Positions 41,062-50,949 of a stretch of DNA of 64,000 nt are shown here, in pieces. The notes under the pieces were generated by a model, which had not been told where the DNA came from, made no database searches, and saw nothing but the letters and a program-made list of their open reading frames with translations. A program made the position numbers and the translations under genes. Every line of letters starts with the position of its first letter. Position 1 is the stretch's first letter. The stretch is from Polyangiaceae bacterium (GTDB lineage: Bacteria; Myxococcota_A; Polyangia; Polyangiales; Polyangiaceae), in contig JANRKO010000019.1 in NCBI GenBank assembly GCA_033763455.1, positions 128,001-192,000 of the forward strand. The letters are read 5' to 3'.

Positions 41062-42174
41062 TCATGCGCCACTCTTGCCGTTGGTGAGAAGCTGCGCCGG
41101 GAGCAGTGATTGGAGCCCGTCGGCCCCAACCACCACCTTCACTTCTTGGATGTGCTGAGCGATCTCTTTCATCGCTTCCAGCTCCTTCAAGCGCAAAAGT
41201 ACCGGGTTTGCCTCCATAACCTTGGCCGTGTTCGCCAACGACCGCGTAGCGGCCGTTTCTTCACGACGTAAGATCACGTTGGCCGCAGCTTCCTTTTCGG
41301 CCTCGATCACGCGATTCAACAGGGCTTTCATTTCACCCGGCAAAACCACGTCTTTGACACCCACATGTTCGATCTTGACTCCCAGCGCCGTGGTGCATGC
41401 CGTAACCCGTCGCTCCATGAAGCGTGTCATTTCGTCACGCCCTTCGAGCAATTGATCGAGGGTTACCCCGGCCACGTATTCACGCGCGGCAAGCTGGGCT
41501 GCCGTGTAGACAGAATCCCGTAGGTTCTGCACCTTGGTTGCAACCACCACCGGATCAGAAACAGCGTATTCGGCCGTTAACGTCAAACGCAACGTCACCT
41601 TATCTCGCGTCATCAATTCCTGACCAGCAATGGTTACTTCCTGGCGCCGCATATCCACGACGCCAATCTCGGCCTTGGCTCCAGGGTGCGTCCACAACTT
41701 GTATCGGCCCGGCGGCAACACAGAAACGAAGCGCCCCTGCTCGTAACGCAAGCCCATTTGGTAGGCCAATACCGTTACGTCAATGTACTCATTGGACGGA
41801 ATCAACCGCTCCAACTCTGCCGACATTTCCGGCAAAGGCTGAGTAACATCGAACACCGAAAGCTGCACAGAAGCATCTACGGTCCAATAACGGTGCACCC
41901 CCGGGCGCAAAAATGCCACCGGCACACCATCTTTGAACAGGACACCTCGTTCACCAGAACCAATCACAACCTCACGAAACCAAGCAGAAGGCAGTTTTGC
42001 CCGGACTTCCGGCAGGGCTGAAAACAGCAAAACACTGGTATCGAACCGTTGCTCAGTGAGCCGCAACGACCAAACCCGATAACGGCCCGGGCCAAGTGCA
42101 GCTACAGGTAAGCCGTCCTTGAAAAGAACCACTCGTTCGTTTAACTTCACACGAATCAATTTTGACCACAACAT
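41062..42174 (-). CDS. SPFH/band-7 (slipin family) protein
   Basis: Three ER..LF.DG...L.PG.Y repeats; GQELMTRDKVTLRL; REETAATRSLANTAK..E.NPVLLRLKELE; GAGG SD. Confidence 0.9.
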   Translation of the reverse strand: MLWSKLIRVKLNERVVLFKDGLPVAALGPGRYRVWSLRLTEQRFDTSVLLFSALPEVRAKLPSAWFREVVIGSGERGVLFKDGVPVAFLRPGVHRYWTVDASVQLSVFDVTQPLPEMSAELERLIPSNEYIDVTVLAYQMGLRYEQGRFVSVLPPGRYKLWTHPGAKAEIGVVDMRRQEVTIAGQELMTRDKVTLRLTLTAEYAVSDPVVVATKVQNLRDSVYTAAQLAAREYVAGVTLDQLLEGRDEMTRFMERRVTACTTALGVKIEHVGVKDVVLPGEMKALLNRVIEAEKEAAANVILRREETAATRSLANTAKVMEANPVLLRLKELEAMKEIAQHIQEVKVVVGADGLQSLLPAQLLTNGKSGA

Positions 42175-42189
42175 GGGTCACCTCTTGGG

Positions 42190-42652
42190 TTGATGGACTC
42201 CCACCTTCGGCGTGAGCACCATGCCCGCGCCTTTGGAGATCGTCGATTGCTGGTATTTGCCGATACCGTCGGCTTTCGGCGAGCCCGCCTTTGGCCCTAG
42301 TAGTAGGGAGAACGGGACTCGGAAGATGTGCGGGGGCTCTGCAGACTGCTTGAGCCCGAAATTAGTGGCTCCAGAGGTTCAAAGCCCGGCGCCTAGGTTG
42401 AAGCGCAGTGTGAAGCCGCCGTAGCGGCCTCCGAAACGCTTCTCGCTTGAGCGTCTTGGGTCCGATGATTTGCGCGAAATCACTGCGATCTCACCCGGTT
42501 GCAGTCAGCGGGCGCCGAGGCGATGGCCGAAGCTTGCGAGCGAAATGTACGTGAGTTTGGGCAAAACTCGGGTCCGTTCGCCTTCCCCCAATGGCTGCGG
42601 AAGGGCTTTGAAAACCTCTGGAAACCTGGTGTGAATGCCTTTTTAAGGCCAG
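42190..42652 (-). ncRNA. Putative large structured ncRNA / 5' leader of the slipin gene
   Basis: 18-bp long-range helix (42603-42622 with 42370-42387) plus many hairpins, including GCCGC-UACG-GCGGC; no credible ORF. Confidence 0.55.
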
Positions 42653-42653
42653 G

Positions 42654-42722
42654 CCCTTTGCTCTACCCGATGAGCTACAACTCCGTGAGGAGAAGATCGG
42701 ATTCGAACCGACTACCGAAGGG
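42654..42722 (-). ncRNA. Circularly permuted tRNA-like module (YrlA/Y-RNA-like architecture)
   Basis: CCCTT-CGGTA-GTCGG TTCGAAT CCGAT-CTTCTCC TCAC GGAGTTG-TA-GCTC ATCGGGTA GAGC-A-AAGGG: T arm, closed acceptor stem, D arm, anticodon-like stem. Confidence 0.75.
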
Positions 42723-42724
42723 TT

Positions 42725-42864
42725 CTGCCGTGACAGGGCAGTGTCATCCATGACAAGCATGCTTCCGGGACACAACTACCGGACATCCATCGGTGACTCA
42801 CGAGGAGACCAATGCACGCAGTGTTGCGCCGTTTTGAAGCAAGCTTCGCGGGATTCGAACCCGC
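42725..42864 (-). ncRNA. Rearranged tRNA-Asp(GUC)-like element
   Basis: T arm GCGGG TTCGAAT CCCGC (42864-42848) lies upstream of a D-like hairpin and the anticodon arm CTGCC CTGTCAC GGCAG (42741-42725). Confidence 0.5.
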
Positions 42865-42866
42865 GG

Positions 42867-42940
42867 CACACAAGGCAAGATTCGAACTTGCACTCTACTG
42901 ATATAGAATCAGCGGCCTCTACCTTTTGGGCTACATGTGT
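42867..42940 (-). tRNA. tRNA or tRNA-like gene with CUA anticodon (amber suppressor-like)
   Basis: ACACATG TA GCC CAAAAGGTAGA GGC C GCTGA TTCTATA TCAGT AGAGT GCAAG TTCGAAT CTTGC CTTGTGT G; 6/7 acceptor pairs; no encoded CCA; U37 atypical. Confidence 0.75.
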
Positions 42941-42993: not shown

Positions 42994-43025
42994 AAAAAAG
43001 CCGCCGAGGTAACCCTGGGCGGCTT
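42994..43025 (-). terminator. Rho-independent terminator (attenuator)
   Basis: AAGCCGCC CAGG GTTA CCTC GGCGGCTT TTTT. Confidence 0.85.
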
Positions 43026-43050
43026 CACACAGAAACACTGCGTAAACGCC

Positions 43051-43179
43051 CTAGGGGGAGCCCCGAAAATCGCGAAAATTGCCGACTAAGCTGCGCTCGC
43101 GGCGTGCACCACAGACGAAAGCCATGCCAAGATTTGGCAGCTGTTGTGCTGTGATGGTGAAACGGTGGAAGTGCTTCAT
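43051..43179 (-). CDS. Putative leader/attenuator peptide (42 aa)
   Basis: MKHFHRFTITAQQLPNLGMAFVCGARRERSLVGNFRDFRGSP-TAG between promoter and terminator; stop codon lies within the antiterminator strand. Confidence 0.6.
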   Translation of the reverse strand: MKHFHRFTITAQQLPNLGMAFVCGARRERSLVGNFRDFRGSP

Positions 43180-43190
43180 GAGGAGGCCGC

Positions 43191-43218
43191 AGAGTACGGA
43201 TCTAGAAAAACAAGTCAA
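43191..43218 (-). promoter_or_regulatory. Sigma70-type promoter
   Basis: TTGACT-16 nt-TACTCT, ending 11 nt before the leader ATG. Confidence 0.6.
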
Positions 43219-44151: not shown

Positions 44152-45603
44152 ATGGATCTCAAACACTACGAAGTGGATCCGAAGAGTTACGACGAAATGT
44201 TCGACGCGAGCGGCGAGGTTCGGCCGGCCTATCGGGAACTTGCGCGGCGGCTCGGCGAAATGTCCGGTGAAGATTTCACCCGGCGGCAACGCACGGCAGA
44301 TATCTTGCTGCGAAACCAGGGCGTCACGTTCACCGTGTACTCGGACGACGCGGGCATTGAGAAGGTTTTTCCGTTCGACCCCATCCCGCGCCTGATGCCT
44401 GCCGAAGAATGGAGCCTGATTGAACGCGGCTTGATTCAGCGCATTGAGGCCTTGAACCTTTTCATTGCTGACATCTATGGGGATCAACACATCCTCAAAG
44501 ACAAAGTGGTTGATCCTGAGCTCATCTTAGGCGCCTCATTTTTCCGCCGTGAGATGATGGGGTTTAGGCCGCCTCGTGGGATCTATACCCACATCACCGG
44601 CACAGATTTAATTCGCGATGCCAACGGAAAATTCGTCGTCCTAGAAGACAATGCTCGGAACCCAAGCGGCGTGAGCTACGTGCTTGAATGCCGCGCAGTT
44701 CTGAAACGTGTCTTCCCGCTCTTGTTCGAAACGTACGGAGTGCGCCCGGTTGAAGATTACGCCAATTGGCTCCGCGACATGATGCAATTTGTAGCGCCAC
44801 GAGGCTCATCCAATCCAAGCATGGTGGTGCTGACGCCGGGCATCTACAATTCGGCGTACTTCGAACACAGCTTTTTAGCCCGCCAAATGGGTGTACCGCT
44901 CGTCGAAGGTCGAGATTTGGTCGTAAAAGATGGAATGGTGTGCATGCGCACGATTACCGGGCTGCAGCGGGTGGATGTTATCTACCGGCGCCTGGATGAT
45001 GACTTTCTGGACCCACTTATCGGTCGCCCTGATTCGGTATTGGGCTGCGCGGGGCTTTTCTCGGCGTATCGCAGTGGGGCGGTGACGCTCGTGAACGCAC
45101 CAGGCACAGGCGCCGTGGACGATAAAGCTGTCTACCCGTTCGTGCCGGACATGATTCGTTATTATCTTAAGAGTGAACCTATCATTGACAACGTTCCAAC
45201 CTATTTGGCAACCCGCCCGGATGAGCAGAAGTACATGCTCGAGAATATCCACGAACTGGTGATCAAACAGACCGACGCTTCCGGCGGCTACGGCATGTTG
45301 ATTGGCACGCACTCTACGGCAGAGGAACGCGAAGACTTCAAACGGCGCATCAAGGCTAAGCCCCGCTCCTACATTGGCCAACCCACTATCAGTCTCGGCA
45401 AACATCCCACAGTAATCGACGGTAAGCTGGAAGGGCGGTGCGTCGATTTGAGGCCTTATGTCCTTTATGGCGAGCGAATTTCGGTCATTCCAGGAGCCCT
45501 CACCCGGGTGGCACTCAGGAAGGGCTCTCTCGTTGTTAATTCAAGCCAAGGTGGTGGCTACAAAGATACCTGGGTGCTCACTGATAAGGGAGGCGCAGCC
45601 TAA
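44152..45603 (+). CDS. Circularly permuted type 2 ATP-grasp protein
   Basis: [52 protein letters not shown]. Confidence 0.93.
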
Positions 45604-46520
45604 TGTTAAGCCGAGTTGCAGACGCCCTTTATTGGATGAGCCGTTACGTCGAACGTGCTGAGCACGCAGCACGTGTCCTCGAGGTCACACGCCGCATGTT
45701 GATCGACGTTGAGCCCCTCGCCCCTCAAATGGCCAAACGCATTCGGGACGACGCATTTCGCAGCTTGGGCCTTCCGGGCGTCGACTTGCACGGAGCCATC
45801 TTCGACGAATCAGAGCCTGGGTCTATCGCCTCCTCTGTCTTCAGAGCCCGAGAGAATGCTCGTCAGGTGCAGGAGGTTATTAGCTCGGAGATGTGGGGCT
45901 ATATCAACGAGACGCACTGGATGCTCTCGGAGGCCCGTCGGGCGGGGCCTTCGCGTGAGCTGCCAGACCTCTTGGGTGAAGTAGTAAAGGCTGGGTTTCT
46001 TTGGGCTGGGGTTACGGATGCCACTATGGGTCGCGGGCCTGGTTGGTTGTTTATTCGCCTGGGCCAGTTCGTTGAACGAGCGGACCGAACGAGTCGAATT
46101 TTTGCGGCACAATGGGAGGCCATCGAGGAGTTGAGTACTGAGGCCATCCACACCTCGGGCGATCACTTTGCCTGGCTCACATTGCTTCGGAGTTGCGGAT
46201 CGCTTGAGGAGTATAGGAAGCGGTACCCAACACGCATGACAGCACGGCAAGTGGCGGATTTTATGCTGCTAGACGACACCTTTCCGCGCACCGTGCGCTA
46301 CTCAGTCTCAGTTGCGGCCGAATTTTCAAAACGCTTAACCCAGTTCGCAAGCCCCGAACGCGCCCGCGCTGAACGCGCGTTTGGGAGAGTCGCTTCTCGC
46401 ATCGAATACACCACCATCGACGAAGTTATGGAGACCGGCCCAGCTGTGTTCGTGAGAGGCGTTGCAGAAGAGATCTTGCTGGCGACAGCCGAGCTCCAGA
46501 GCGCGTATTTCTTGCACTAA
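45603..46520 (+). CDS. Alpha-E domain protein
   Basis: [35 protein letters not shown]. Confidence 0.92.
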   Translation: MLSRVADALYWMSRYVERAEHAARVLEVTRRMLIDVEPLAPQMAKRIRDDAFRSLGLPGVDLHGAIFDESEPGSIASSVFRARENARQVQEVISSEMWGYINETHWMLSEARRAGPSRELPDLLGEVVKAGFLWAGVTDATMGRGPGWLFIRLGQFVERADRTSRIFAAQWEAIEELSTEAIHTSGDHFAWLTLLRSCGSLEEYRKRYPTRMTARQVADFMLLDDTFPRTVRYSVSVAAEFSKRLTQFASPERARAERAFGRVASRIEYTTIDEVMETGPAVFVRGVAEEILLATAELQSAYFLH

Positions 46521-46529
46521 CGAGGACCC

Positions 46530-47549
46530 ATGCTGCTGTTCATCAAACACCTCACCGAACTCACGTATTCGGAGCCCATCACCGAAACGGTGATGGAAGT
46601 TCGCATGACTCCGCGAAACGATGCCCACCAAGTGCGGCGCGCGTTTCGCCTGGAGGTGGGGCCCAGCGCCACACCTTTCGAACACACAGATTGGCTCGGT
46701 AACCGCGTGCAGCAGTTCTCCATTTTGCCCCCGCACGATAAAGTCGTGATCTTGGCTCGGAGCGTGGTGGATACGCAGCCAAGGCACTCAGTGCTCGCAG
46801 ATGTGAATCGCGGGTCAGTGCCTCCGCTCGACCATCGAATCGGCGACTATTTGCGCTTCACCGGGCCGGTTGTGGACGTTCACAACCTCGACCGTTTGAT
46901 TCAAAATTTGGGGCTCGGGGCACCGGCGTCGCCTGAAGTTATTCTGCAACGAGTCGCGTCAAACCTGCGCGATCACGTGGAGTACCGTAAAGGCGTTACC
47001 ACGAGCGCCACGGCGATCGACAAGGTGCTCGAGCAGCGCGCTGGTGTGTGCCAGGATCTGGCTCACGTGGCCATTGGGATCTTGCGCAAGCTCGGCGTAC
47101 CAGCTCGCTACGTGTCGGGGTATTTCTATCGCGCGGATGGAAACAGCGAGATGGAGAGCCATGCTTGGTGCGAGGCGCACTTCCAGGGCACAGGTTGGCT
47201 CCCGATAGATCCCACCCACAAAACACTGGCGGGCGAAGGGCACGTTGCTATCGCGAGCGGTCGCGATTTCTCTGACGTTTCACCCAATCGCGGCGTCTAT
47301 CGCGGCAAGGGTGAAGAGAGCCTGCGCGTAAGAGTCACCGTGCAAGAGGTGCAAGAGGTACCCGAAGGCTTATTTGCCGTAGGCTCACCCGAAGTCGAGG
47401 TGCAGCCAATTGGAGGAGGCATGCTTCCCACCCACCGCGAAGCTCTCGAATACCAGCAAGAACAGCAGCAACAGCAGCAACAGCAGCAACAAGTACAGCA
47501 GCAACAGCAGCAACAAGTACAGCAACACCAATATTCGGCTGTGCACTGA
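46530..47549 (+). CDS. Transglutaminase family protein with poly-Gln tail
   Basis: GVCQDLAH, HAWCE, IDPT triad; C-terminal Q-tract. Confidence 0.92.
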   Translation: MLLFIKHLTELTYSEPITETVMEVRMTPRNDAHQVRRAFRLEVGPSATPFEHTDWLGNRVQQFSILPPHDKVVILARSVVDTQPRHSVLADVNRGSVPPLDHRIGDYLRFTGPVVDVHNLDRLIQNLGLGAPASPEVILQRVASNLRDHVEYRKGVTTSATAIDKVLEQRAGVCQDLAHVAIGILRKLGVPARYVSGYFYRADGNSEMESHAWCEAHFQGTGWLPIDPTHKTLAGEGHVAIASGRDFSDVSPNRGVYRGKGEESLRVRVTVQEVQEVPEGLFAVGSPEVEVQPIGGGMLPTHREALEYQQEQQQQQQQQQQVQQQQQQQVQQHQYSAVH

Positions 47550-47559
47550 GCCTTATCCC

Positions 47560-50500
47560 ATGGCCATTCGAGTTCGTCTCAGTCATCAAACGCGTTACCG
47601 TTACGACAAGCCCATTAACCTGGGCCCACAAACGGTTCGCCTCCGACCAGCACCCCACAACCGCACGCCCCTACACACGTATGGGCTTCACATCGAACCC
47701 AAGGGCCACTTTCTCAATTGGCAGCAGGATCCTTACGGCAATTATCTGGCAAGGCTGGTTTTCCCAGAAAAGGTAGACCATTTTGAAGTCACCGTCGATT
47801 TGGTCGCCGATCTTGAGGCGTACAATCCGTTTGATTTTTTCGTCGAGCCAGAAGCCGAGAATTTCCCTTTCAGCTACGAGCCCACACTTAAAAAAGAGCT
47901 AGAGCCCTATCTAGAGCAAGACCCCCTAACGCCCGCCCTCGCAGCTTTCATCGACAGTTTGAACAAGACACCGCGGAGAGTTAACGATTTCCTTGTAGAA
48001 ACGAACCGCGCTGTAAATGAGGCCGTTAGCTACATTATTCGCCTGGAGCCGGGCGTCCAAAGTCCCGAAGAAACGCTCACTCTGGCCAAGGGCTCGTGTC
48101 GAGATTCTGCATGGCTATTGGCGGTGGTGTTGCGAAAGCTAGGCCTGGCGGCCCGGTTTGTTTCCGGATACCTCATCCAGCTCACGCCAGATCAGCGCCC
48201 GATTGAAGGCGCCCAGGGCCCGCTCGCAGACTTTTGCGACTTGCATGCCTGGTGTGAAGTCTACGTTCCCGGCGCCGGTTGGATTGGGTTAGATGCAACG
48301 AGCGGGCTTCTGACAGCCGAAGGGCACATTCCGCTCGCGTGTTCCCCAAGCCCAGGTTCTGCGGCACCCATTTCGGGGCTGTTGGATGAAGCCGAAACCG
48401 ATTTCAGCCATCACATGTTTGTGGAACGCGTGGTGGACGTTCCCCGCGTCACCAAACCCTATACCGATGAAGAGTGGGCCGCCGTTGAGAAGTTCGGCAC
48501 CAAGGTGGATGAGCATCTAACGCGCTCAGACGTTCGCCTCACCGTAGGGGGTGAGCCCACCTTTGTGAGCACCGAATACCCGGATGACGCCGAATGGAAC
48601 ACGGACGCCCTTGGTAAAAATAAGGAAGGCCTTGCCGATAAGCTGATTCGCCGTTTGCGGAGCGACTGGTATCCCAAAAGCGCCCTCTACCATGCGCAGG
48701 GCAAGTGGTACCCGGGTGAGCCTTTGCCGCGGTGGGCTATTTCCTGCTTCTTTCGCACCGACGGCGTGCCCGTTTGGAATGATCCTGCGCTTATAGCCGA
48801 TACCAACAAGAGCTACGACCACGGGCCCAAAGAGGCCGAAGCCTTCGCAAAGCGTTTGATCGAGAATCTCGGGCTCGAGCGCCACGGCCTGATGCCAGCG
48901 TTTGAGGATGCTTGGTACTACATGTGGCGCGCGCGGCGTTTACCTGTAAACGTGATGCCGCTCGATAATCGCGTGGATGATGAGGTGGAGCGCGAGCGAA
49001 TAGCGGCCGTATTCAACCAAAAGCTATCCAGCGTGGTGGGCTATGTGCTCCCCCTGACGTATTGGGGTGGTTGGCGCAGTGGGTCTTTTTTCCTCAAAGA
49101 TGAACGCTGCTACCTGCTTCCTGGTGATTCGCCGATGGGTTACCGCTTGCCTTTGGATTCCCTACCGTGGATCGCCCAGGAAGATTGGGACGGCAACATT
49201 CCGGTAGATCCTTTCGCGCGCCAGCCTTCGTTGCCAAAGGCCTTTCACTTCCCGTTGATGCCGGCGCCCGCGATGCCGGCGCCTATCCGCCGTGTGGTGC
49301 CTTCTCTGCCGAAAGCCGAAGTTGCGCCCAACGGGCAGCCAAAAGGCGCCGTTCCTTCACCTCGCGGCGCCGCCCCAGGCAGCACTCATGCCGCGCCGTT
49401 CACGTCACCCGCACAGTTCGAGTCTGCCACGGGCGTGGTGCGCACCGCTTTGTGTGTCGAGCCCCGAGCCGGTCGTTTGCGGATCTTCTTGCCTCCACTG
49501 GAAACGCTCGAAGCGGCCCTTGAGCTCATCGCCGCCATCGAAACAACCGCGGCGCAGCTGAAGCTACCCGTGCAACTGGAAGGCTACGAACCCCCGAGGG
49601 ATCCGCGGCTCGGCGTGTTTCGTGTCACTCCGGATCCGGGTGTGATCGAGGTCAACGTGCCCCCGGTCTCCAGTTTTGCGGCGCAGAAGCTCCAAACCCT
49701 CTCGCTCTATGAACACGCTCGCCAAGTAAAGTTGAGCGCCGAAAAGTTTGATCTCGACGGCACCCACATCGGCAGCGGCGGTGGCTACCACCTCGTGCTT
49801 GGCGGAATGACGCCTGAAAATAGCCCATTTTTGCGGCGACCAGATTTGCTCGGCAGTTTGATTCGTTATTTTCACAACCACCCCAGCCTCTCTTATCTTT
49901 TCTCAGGGCGCTTCATCGGCCCCACCTCGCAATCGCCACGCGTGGATGAAGGCCGCAACGACAGCATCTACGAACTCGAAATAGCTCTCCAACAGTTGCC
50001 GCAAAAGGGGCAGAACGTTCCACCGTGGATTGTGGACCGTGTGCTCCGGCACTTGCTCGCAGACGTTACTGGCAACACCCATCGGACGCAGTTCTGCATC
50101 GATAAGCTCTATTCCCCCGATAGCGCTACAGGGCGGCTCGGCCTCTTGGAGCTGCGCTCTTTCGAAATGCCACCGCATGCCCAAATGGCGGTCGTGCAAC
50201 AGCTCTTAGTGGGCGCTATGGTCGCGAGTTTTTGGGAGCAACCTTATCGTGAAGATCTGGTGTCGTGGAACACGATGCTGCACGATAAATTCATGCTCCC
50301 CTACTTCGTAAAGCGTGACTTTTACGAGGTGCTGGCCGATCTTGAGCGACGCGGATTCAAGCTCGATCGCCACTGGTTCGAGCCACATTACCAGTTTCGG
50401 TTCCCGTATATCGGGCACGTGGTTAAGGATGCTGTAACCCTAGAGATACGTGGCGCTCTCGAACCCTGGAATGTGCTCGGAGAAGAGAGCACTGGAGCCG

Positions 50501-50949
50501 GGACTGCCCGCTACGTGGATTCATCAGTTGAACGCTTGCAGGTACGCGTATTCGGTGCCACACCCGGCCGGCATATTGTGTGTTGCAACAACGTGGAGCT
50601 ACCGCTTGTTGCCACTGGCGTGGAAGGCGAAATGGTAGGGGGCGTGCGTTATCGAGCCTGGCAACCCCCATCATGCCTTCACCCAACCATCGGCGTTCAG
50701 TCACCGCTTGCGTTCGATTTGTACGATCGTTGGAACGGCGTGGCGATTGCGGGGGCCACCTATCACGTAGTGCACCCGGGAGGCCGGGCGGATGAGGTCC
50801 GCCCCGTAAATGCAGCAGCCGCGGAAAGCCGCAGGCTCGCTCGCTTCGAGGCTCGCAGCGTAGGCACCCGTTTGGTTCAACCGCGGCGCCTGGAGCCCCA
50901 TCCGAAGTTCCCATTTACGCTCGATTTACGCCGGGCTTGGCTAGCCTAA
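47560..50949 (+). CDS. Transglutaminase + DUF2126 (putative amidoligase) fusion
   Basis: GSCRDSAWL, DLHAWCEVY, GLDAT; GGEPTFVS, GKWYPGEPLPRW, TPDPGVIEVN, GNTHR, FEMPPH. Confidence 0.92.
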   Translation: MAIRVRLSHQTRYRYDKPINLGPQTVRLRPAPHNRTPLHTYGLHIEPKGHFLNWQQDPYGNYLARLVFPEKVDHFEVTVDLVADLEAYNPFDFFVEPEAENFPFSYEPTLKKELEPYLEQDPLTPALAAFIDSLNKTPRRVNDFLVETNRAVNEAVSYIIRLEPGVQSPEETLTLAKGSCRDSAWLLAVVLRKLGLAARFVSGYLIQLTPDQRPIEGAQGPLADFCDLHAWCEVYVPGAGWIGLDATSGLLTAEGHIPLACSPSPGSAAPISGLLDEAETDFSHHMFVERVVDVPRVTKPYTDEEWAAVEKFGTKVDEHLTRSDVRLTVGGEPTFVSTEYPDDAEWNTDALGKNKEGLADKLIRRLRSDWYPKSALYHAQGKWYPGEPLPRWAISCFFRTDGVPVWNDPALIADTNKSYDHGPKEAEAFAKRLIENLGLERHGLMPAFEDAWYYMWRARRLPVNVMPLDNRVDDEVERERIAAVFNQKLSSVVGYVLPLTYWGGWRSGSFFLKDERCYLLPGDSPMGYRLPLDSLPWIAQEDWDGNIPVDPFARQPSLPKAFHFPLMPAPAMPAPIRRVVPSLPKAEVAPNGQPKGAVPSPRGAAPGSTHAAPFTSPAQFESATGVVRTALCVEPRAGRLRIFLPPLETLEAALELIAAIETTAAQLKLPVQLEGYEPPRDPRLGVFRVTPDPGVIEVNVPPVSSFAAQKLQTLSLYEHARQVKLSAEKFDLDGTHIGSGGGYHLVLGGMTPENSPFLRRPDLLGSLIRYFHNHPSLSYLFSGRFIGPTSQSPRVDEGRNDSIYELEIALQQLPQKGQNVPPWIVDRVLRHLLADVTGNTHRTQFCIDKLYSPDSATGRLGLLELRSFEMPPHAQMAVVQQLLVGAMVASFWEQPYREDLVSWNTMLHDKFMLPYFVKRDFYEVLADLERRGFKLDRHWFEPHYQFRFPYIGHVVKDAVTLEIRGALEPWNVLGEESTGAGTARYVDSSVERLQVRVFGATPGRHIVCCNNVELPLVATGVEGEMVGGVRYRAWQPPSCLHPTIGVQSPLAFDLYDRWNGVAIAGATYHVVHPGGRADEVRPVNAAAAESRRLARFEARSVGTRLVQPRRLEPHPKFPFTLDLRRAWLA

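Follow-up and report, generated by a model that had tools for sequence, protein, structure and literature searches.

Bacterial YrlA RNAs (Rfam RF02553) contain a permuted tRNA-like domain made up of a T arm, a loop-closed acceptor, a D arm and a stem at the anticodon position, with a conserved elbow and a covarying Levitt pair (PMC4201824; 10.1101/312249). The available text of Wang et al. (10.1101/312249) presents a YrlA structure and a model in which Y RNA originated from a tRNA dimer. According to PMC4201824, the acceptor geometry of the Mycobacterium smegmatis YrlA makes it a substrate for RNase P and CCA addition, and Hughes et al. (PMC7790460) suggest that YrlA may inhibit an anticodon nuclease. 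A related system was predicted by Burroughs and Aravind in 2016, namely, b7a-tRNA (band-7-associated tRNA) encoded beside Band-7 and RtcB genes. As relayed in 10.1101/312249, this prediction was unvalidated, the RNA strongly resembles authentic tRNA, and the same 2016 work placed YrlA occasionally beside Band-7. In Anabaena, translation stress induces a tRNA array together with an HNH gene and rtcB, and the same repressor regulon includes a slipin, according to the excerpts of PMC8421152 and PMC10272220. In the literature search, b7a-tRNA appeared only in 10.1101/312249 and no description of a myxobacterial clade was retrieved, although Burroughs and Aravind 2016 or Sim and Wolin 2018 may already list the form; the available text of PMC9650030 and 10.1101/872010 holds nothing on this locus.

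In this study, a 64,000-nt stretch of a Polyangiaceae contig (hereafter the window) was analysed around a circularly permuted tRNA-like module on its minus strand. The module is confirmed as real and conserved: the permuted topology covaries across a family with fixed linkage to slipin genes, the Ro motif is missing and no association with Ro60 was found. The first-pass annotation had recognised a Ro-free YrlA-like module, which stands, and had missed the longer RNA around it, slipin as its constant partner and the prior b7a-tRNA prediction. The novelty is lowered because the pairing of a tRNA mimic with Band-7 had already been predicted, both as b7a-tRNA and as YrlA beside Band-7; the permuted, Ro-independent form is new here, and the strict 7-bp acceptor, the detached anticodon-arm mimic and the predicted vault-like repeats in the partner protein are added.

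The permuted module and the RNA around it

The 69-nt module reads in the order given by the first-pass annotation, that is, T arm, loop-closed acceptor, D arm and CCCUU/AAGGG stem, with U8A9, A26 and a 5-nt variable region (Table 1). Its acceptor is paired at five of seven positions, both mismatches being U-U; the third pair is A3:U70, position 73 is U and CCA is not encoded. The 69-mer alone is as stable as its shuffles (z -0.83), and in a 140-nt context the permuted fold lies 4.1 kcal/mol above the minimum free energy, with a closing-stem pair probability of approximately 0.03. The YrlA covariance-model search suggested by the annotation gave a partial match over model positions 23-85, the best YrlA match in the genome, at 27.4 bits and thus far below the gathering score of 69. 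Given this weak fold and partial match, the single window sequence cannot settle the reality of the module, and the proof is comparative. With the family model built here, which has the window module in its seed, that module was the top genome match at 62 bits, and the next match (42.8 bits) was a real tRNA junction. The window copy is weaker than most family members.

Table 1. Features upstream of and including the slipin gene, in window coordinates
Feature	Position	Strand	Basis
42-aa leader ORF ending DFRGSP; predicted antiterminator through possible pairing of its stop and GGCG with the 5' arm of the terminator	43051..43179	-	
GC-rich hairpin with U run; predicted attenuator terminator	42994..43026	-	fold; same pattern upstream in 16/80 slipin loci
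tRNA-like gene with CUA loop (ARAGORN: tRNA-Pyl), normal order	42865..42940	-	50.3 bits; tRNA arrays here in relatives
Lone T-arm hairpin directly 3' of the upstream tRNA	42848..42864	-	sequence; after the last tRNA in 6/26 relatives
Domain I: long bulged hairpin with near-invariant GU(C/U)CG at 42788-42779	42755..42847	-	fold; 27-sequence alignment
D-like hairpin and tRNA-Asp(GUC)-type anticodon hairpin just 5' of the module	42725..42754	-	tRNA covariance model 20.3 bits, model positions 10-63
Circularly permuted tRNA-like module: closing stem, variable region, T arm, loop-closed acceptor, U8A9, D arm, A26	42654..42722	-	sequence; YrlA covariance model 27.4 bits; covariation in 57 distinct homologues
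Module, 5' closing strand CCCUU, then 5-nt variable region	42722-42718	-	
Module, T arm GUCGG-UUCGAAU-CCGAU	42712-42696	-	
Module, acceptor with 4-nt loop CUUCUCC-UCAC-GGAGUUG, then U8A9	42695-42678	-	
Module, D arm GCUC-AUCGGGUA-GAGC, then A26	42675-42660	-	
Module, 3' closing strand AAGGG	42658-42654	-	
Detached anticodon-arm-like hairpin 3' of the module; weak (3-bp stem, loop UUAAAAA)	42637..42650	-	strict form in 28/57 homologues
Domain III: long-range stem 42626-42603 / 42387-42367 around several hairpins	42367..42626	-	fold
Slipin, SPFH/Band-7 protein, 370 aa; three N-terminal beta repeats, SPFH domain, long helix	41062..42174	-	Pfam Band_7 E 3e-29; model pLDDT 88.5

The module is the core of a predicted structured RNA of approximately 500-700 nt. 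The window region 42170-42870 folds with a z score of -4.06, and the region from module to start codon scores below -2 in 53 of the 57 homologues (12 shuffles each). Two-sided changes were observed in 14 of the 17 pairs of Domain I, in an alignment of 27 sequences whose rows were chosen by the GU(C/U)CG motif, and Domain III extends to approximately 50-200 nt from the slipin start codon. The anticodon-like hairpin 5' of the module occurs in only 3/57 homologues and is therefore no family constant. On the 3' side, a strict anticodon-like hairpin within 55 nt of the D arm was found in 28/57 homologues, compared with 0.46 in shuffles; the counterpart in the window fails the strict 4-bp test. The loops carry 18 different triplets, and this free variation favours shape mimicry rather than decoding. 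In the RNA run X1, a single 163-nt contig (42689-42851, depth 2.9, three differences) covers part of the locus and shows neither strand nor ends; one contig end falls at the acceptor loop, and contig ends are no evidence of cleavage.

Farther upstream, only the upstream tRNA was recovered by Rfam at the gathering level. This CUA tRNA-like gene has loop irregularities of the U36/U37 type and no encoded CCA, and is probably a pseudo-tRNA, the last remnant of a tRNA array. The consensus promoter and terminator scan returned no calls, the GC-rich hairpin included; TTGACT at 43218 with TACTCT at 43196 offers a weak guess at a promoter. A short ORF ending in TAG/TGA-GGCG 26-38 nt before a terminator-like hairpin was present in 10 of the 17 loci examined. 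Leader ORF and terminator together suggest ribosome-sensing attenuation, in a direction of control that we infer.

Elsewhere in the window, a plus-strand cluster (44152-50949) encodes circularly permuted ATP-grasp, Alpha-E and transglutaminase-like proteins; the 339-aa protein has a glutamine-rich run at its C-terminus. ARAGORN made 45 tRNA calls in the genome, among which tRNA-Trp and tRNA-Lys(CTT) are absent; assembly gaps are likely.

Conservation and covariation at slipin loci

The closest slipins belong to Polyangiaceae, Kofleriaceae and other Myxococcota. Module homologues upstream of slipin were detected by blastn on 201 genomes of the family, and more were added by nhmmer; 22 of the 28 other slipin genomes in this sample gave a module parse, one of them mis-registered. 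Counts from the earlier parse had been selected on pairing, and the statistics were therefore taken from a main parse anchored solely on T-loop and D-arm patterns, so that the tested pairs were not selected for. The module was found by this parse in 56 of the 75 slipin loci whose upstream DNA extends to 650 nt or more, giving 57 distinct sequences including that of the window. Members recognised in other parses are missed by it, for example L013, L019 (which has less than 650 nt upstream), L030, L034, L050 and L071. In the first parse, the module lay 287-515 nt upstream of slipin (480 nt in the window) and always on the same strand; inserted genes place it approximately 1.4-3.5 kb away in L024 and L025.

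As controls for pairing in the modules, 53 real junctions of tandem tRNAs were taken from the same loci. On average, 6.7 of the 7 acceptor pairs formed in modules, 3.9 in junctions and 3.8 with shuffled partners, and the corresponding values for the closing stem were 4.1 of 5, 3.1 and 3.2; the acceptor and closing-stem criteria held jointly in 46/57 modules versus 6/53 junctions. The Levitt 15:48 pair, which joins the swapped halves, was G15:C48 or A15:U48 in 48/57 modules versus 27/53 controls (maximum 36 in 5000 shuffles), with the proviso that the homologues are related rather than independent events and that the two Levitt types partly follow lineages. In an alignment of 35 rows, picked for short loops and an acceptor with at least 5/7 pairs, two-sided changes were present in 20 of the 22 module pairs and 93% of the cells were paired, compared with 35-49% in slid controls. 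Family covariation and the anchor-only parse thus uphold the claimed YrlA-like permuted topology. The closing stem was 81% paired in the 35-row alignment; it is present in 47/57 sequences and missing in 10/57, and in six of these ten the 3' strand belongs to an anticodon hairpin of its own, an alternative that the 3' closing strand can adopt in many members. The first-pass annotation would have given way to a junction of two degraded tRNAs if the closing stem showed no covariation; on the contrary, four of its five pairs change on both sides.

Pairing of the acceptor stops at 7 bp: pair 7 forms in 48/52 modules, pair 8 in 21/43 and pair 9 in 3/26, and the parsed acceptor loops range from 1 to 54 nt. 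A73 is found in 30/52 modules, C74 in 37/52, encoded CCA in 8/52 and G3:U70 in 18/52. By analogy with YrlA, the strict 7-bp acceptor is likely to be an RNase P site.

Modules were also encountered in other settings. Duplicated tRNA junctions score high on model R1, which is therefore unspecific, and its genome tallies were not taken as family counts; stand-alone modules were present in only 5 of its 28 top phylum loci and in 16 of 122 viral loci. The pattern-matched stand-alone permuted modules on viral contigs are those of L186, L188, L200, L219, L222, L224, L229, L237, L244, L247, L270, L274, L277, L289, L291 and L292. Permuted modules with neither slipin nor Rsr occur in L141, L144, L159/L310 and L163; two of them precede a vWA protein and a ThiF gene in L310, and that of L144 lies near a type I-E CRISPR-cas locus. 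A distant slipin-like gene in L313 is preceded, at 1500-1720, by two tandem permuted modules in the order T, acceptor, D, T, acceptor, D, anticodon-like arm.

Ro60, slipin and the gene neighbourhood

Searches of the window genome (completeness 93.7%) with Pfam, with two local Ro60 subtypes as tblastn and HMM queries, and at the protein level found no TROVE/Rsr. The use of real proteins was a recheck, because PF05731 alone gives the Salmonella-type Rsr an E value of just approximately 1e-4. The absence of a neighbouring Ro gene, noted earlier from the sequence, therefore extends to the genome. The Ro-binding motif GNCGAAN0-1G has no match 5' of the window module and three matches 3' of it (42582, 42280 and 42211). 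Across the family, GCGAAUG precedes the stem in 8/9 Rsr-linked modules versus 1/57 slipin-linked ones, and the strict motif lies within 60 nt of 5/57 slipin-linked modules; the earlier remark that no Ro-binding helix is apparent agrees with these counts. Among the 201 family genomes, Ro60 was matched in 8/29 with slipin and 41/172 others, and 17 of the 23 good-quality slipin genomes have none. The suggestion of a Ro-independent family is borne out by this lack of association and by the absence of any Ro60 match in the window genome. In 50 module genomes of unstated completeness (from 80 slipin loci), 29 were without a Ro60 match and 21 had one, and Rsr lies within 5 kb of 2/56 module loci, which counts against a clean split. 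The Rsr genes of this myxobacterial family come with their own motif-bearing permuted RNAs.

Canonical YrlA-type RNAs with GCGAAUG adjoin Salmonella-type Rsr inside tRNA arrays in L299-L307. Matches of 125 nt to the tRNA model, exceeding normal tRNA length, lie just 3' of TROVE genes at L100 581-707, L101 263-387 and L102 3095-3223.

Judged from its sequence, the module would act like the effector module of YrlA, yet it falls outside YrlA. The permuted T arm, closed acceptor, D arm and conserved elbow are all present, whereas the window lacks the 5' GNCGAAN0-1G, the long two-end stem enclosing the module and an adjacent Ro60; moreover, acceptors vary in YrlA, whereas that of the slipin-linked module is almost always 7 bp. 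YrlA genes lie within approximately 4 kb of Ro60/Rsr, and the RNA is bound by Ro60 and contains pseudouridine and dihydrouridine.

The neighbourhood resembles that of b7a-tRNA, with a tRNA-like RNA directly upstream of a Band-7 gene and surroundings of RNA-repair type, as far as 10.1101/312249 describes the system. In the window, a tRNA-like RNA adjoins the Band-7 gene and RtcB is not adjacent. In terms of normal-order tRNA likeness, part of a b7a-tRNA definition available only at second hand, the module is permuted, and normal order is seen in the CUA tRNA-like gene upstream of it. Members of the myxobacterial clade are as a rule permuted, whereas b7a-tRNA is described as close to an authentic tRNA; the myxobacterial module further differs in sitting within a 500-700 nt RNA and in adjoining RtcB (within 5 kb) in just 4/56 loci, and the window genome has neither RtcB nor Ro60. 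RtcB is encoded somewhere in 28/29 slipin genomes versus 117/172 others, an enrichment that genome size may partly explain. With RtcB not found in the window genome and near so few loci, a direct repair role is not required. Distant slipins near rtcR-like genes (L341, L342 and L344) have tRNA-like units and a similar 5' CCGGUGCGC element, and the complete units of L341 and L342 are in normal order; the myxobacterial RNA thus reads as a permuted member of the b7a-tRNA kind. Its best placement is within the predicted b7a-tRNA/Band-7 system, as a variant. Upstream of the slipins of L341, L342, L343 and L344, tRNA-like units or lone T arms with altered anticodon arms share the CCGGUGCGC-like 5' element, mostly by a divergent rtcR-like gene.

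The slipins of relatives often lie in or after long tRNA arrays. At least five tRNAs accompany 18 of the 56 module loci, an HNH gene accompanies 17, and 23 have no tRNA; in L311, slipin, module, HNH, rtcR, rtcB and rtcA are all within 12 kb. This organisation recalls the Anabaena trn operon and TrcR regulon, in which a tRNA array is combined with an HNH gene, and rtcB and slipin share one regulon (PMC8421152, PMC10272220). The excerpts of these two reports mention no permuted tRNA mimic, and control at the present locus looks like attenuation, putatively without TrcR repeats.

The partner protein is predicted to have a vault-like architecture. The best fold match of the slipin model is stomatin (Z 17), and MVP chains of the vault align to it over 386-436 columns. 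Slipin residues 5-349 are collinear with MVP 322-720 through repeats, shoulder and cap helix (Z 10.9, rmsd 10.4, 253 aligned), and three rows start from residue 5-6 at MVP 322-323 (Z 10.8-11.0, rmsd 9-10). In the language-model comparison, residues 1-125 have Vault repeat families as their neighbours (0.84-0.87), which is no more than a lead. Pfam and sequence profiles gave no Vault match in 62 slipin members, a model of the N-terminus from one sequence was too poor for use (pLDDT 38.7), and the wide structural search was filled by matches to the SPFH domain. The modelled slipin may share the order of parts of the vault ribonucleoprotein (MVP and vault RNA), and differs from it in lying nearer to the stomatin fold and in having only 3-5 repeats; the closed cage of the vault, which holds a non-coding RNA, and any RNA binding would be hypothetical here. 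Kofleriaceae slipins (L054-L084) are approximately 120 aa longer, consistent with additional repeats.

Function, alternatives and significance

The reading that we favour, and regard as reasonably probable, is a permuted tRNA mimic, linked to slipin and forming the core of a long RNA, that is non-decoding, Ro60-free and co-induced with slipin when translation is impaired. The ribosome-sensing leader peptide and terminator would permit read-through under translation stress. The RNA would then form a true tRNA elbow through the T loop, the D-loop GG, U8-A14 and the covarying 15:48 pair. RNase P would probably open the 7-bp acceptor and CCA may be added, as for the M. smegmatis YrlA. The RNA probably binds the slipin oligomer, which would take the place that Ro60 has for YrlA; the neighbourhood by itself shows no such binding. 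Elbow and detached anticodon-like hairpin would be offered as decoy or scaffold to tRNA-cutting and tRNA-repair enzymes. The module probably arose from a tRNA dimer, as the permuted myxobacterial form of the predicted b7a-tRNA. An extension of this reading is doubtful: slipin would be a miniature vault-type protein caging the permuted RNA, forming a Ro60-free bacterial vault-like RNP under translation stress, in which the RNase P-opened elbow and anticodon-loop decoys would capture tRNA nucleases or keep broken tRNAs ready for repair.

In the most serious, though unlikely, of the other readings, the module would act in cis within the slipin leader, as an element for processing or regulation: by cutting its tRNA-like fold, RNase P/Z would part the slipin mRNA from the tRNA array and so stabilise or gate that mRNA, and no free RNP would exist. 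Constant strand and distance, the strict 7-bp acceptor and the end of Domain III approximately 50-200 nt short of the start codon would all suit such an element, but the module is retained in 23/56 loci without any tRNA to process, inserted genes separate it from slipin by approximately 1.4-3.5 kb in L024 and L025, and the detached anticodon-like hairpin (28/57) would be superfluous for cleavage. An orphan YrlA that binds a distant or too divergent Ro60 through the bulged GUCCG of Domain I is improbable. The vertebrate Ro site is GGUCCGA, which the GUCCG of Domain I resembles, and the near-invariant bulged GU(C/U)CG, the YrlA covariance-model match and the presence of Ro60 in 21/50 module genomes (within 5 kb in 2/56 loci) speak for it; against it, four query types found no Ro60 in the window genome, Ro60 is not enriched (8/29 vs 41/172), and the Rsr of the family is accompanied by its own motif-bearing YrlAs.

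The other alternatives carry still less weight. Permuted pre-tRNAs give decoding tRNAs in some algae and archaea, and the 7-bp acceptor, A73, encoded CCA (8/52), G3:U70 (18/52) and members with an anticodon arm directly after the D arm would fit a permuted pre-tRNA from which ligation and opening yield a decoding tRNA. This is very improbable: in modules of the window type the stem carries no anticodon, the 18 kinds of loop triplet show no match to acceptor identity, and the 45 ARAGORN calls in the genome do not include Trp. A junction of two decayed tandem tRNAs (the 3' half of tRNA-Asp and the 5' half of the next), left by an eroding array, is extremely improbable. It accounts for the Asp(GUC) anticodon hairpin and D-like hairpin just upstream, for the tRNA arrays at this position in relatives and for the scores of approximately 60-70 bits that duplicated-tRNA junctions reach on the family model, but the upstream Asp arm is present in 3/57 only and the module persists in 23 loci lacking all tRNAs; the conserved position and covariation far above the 53 real junctions lead to its rejection. 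Largely refuted in this way, the junction could now explain only how the module originated or how the window copy is decaying. The tRNA-like domain of a two-piece (permuted) tmRNA is practically negligible as an explanation. Such tmRNAs have the order T arm, acceptor, loop, acceptor, with an Ala acceptor, no D stem and a tag ORF, so that the arm order and G3:U70 in 18/52 modules agree with them; however, the module has a full D stem and, in the window, A3:U70, Rfam search gave no tmRNA match at its locus, and a separate ordinary tmRNA (tag ANDNALALAA, on C45) is encoded in the genome. Full D stem, A3:U70 and separate tmRNA place the module outside that class.

The family shows that selection maintains the tRNA-mimic fold of YrlA in the absence of Ro60, and hence that this fold has a function in its own right. 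With its covariation and with one member, Labilithrix luteola (L042), in culture, the family can be used to probe both the unvalidated prediction of b7a-tRNA/Band-7 and the model that derives Y RNAs from a tRNA dimer. If slipin and RNA do form a vault-like particle, the system would provide a tractable bacterial handle on vault function.
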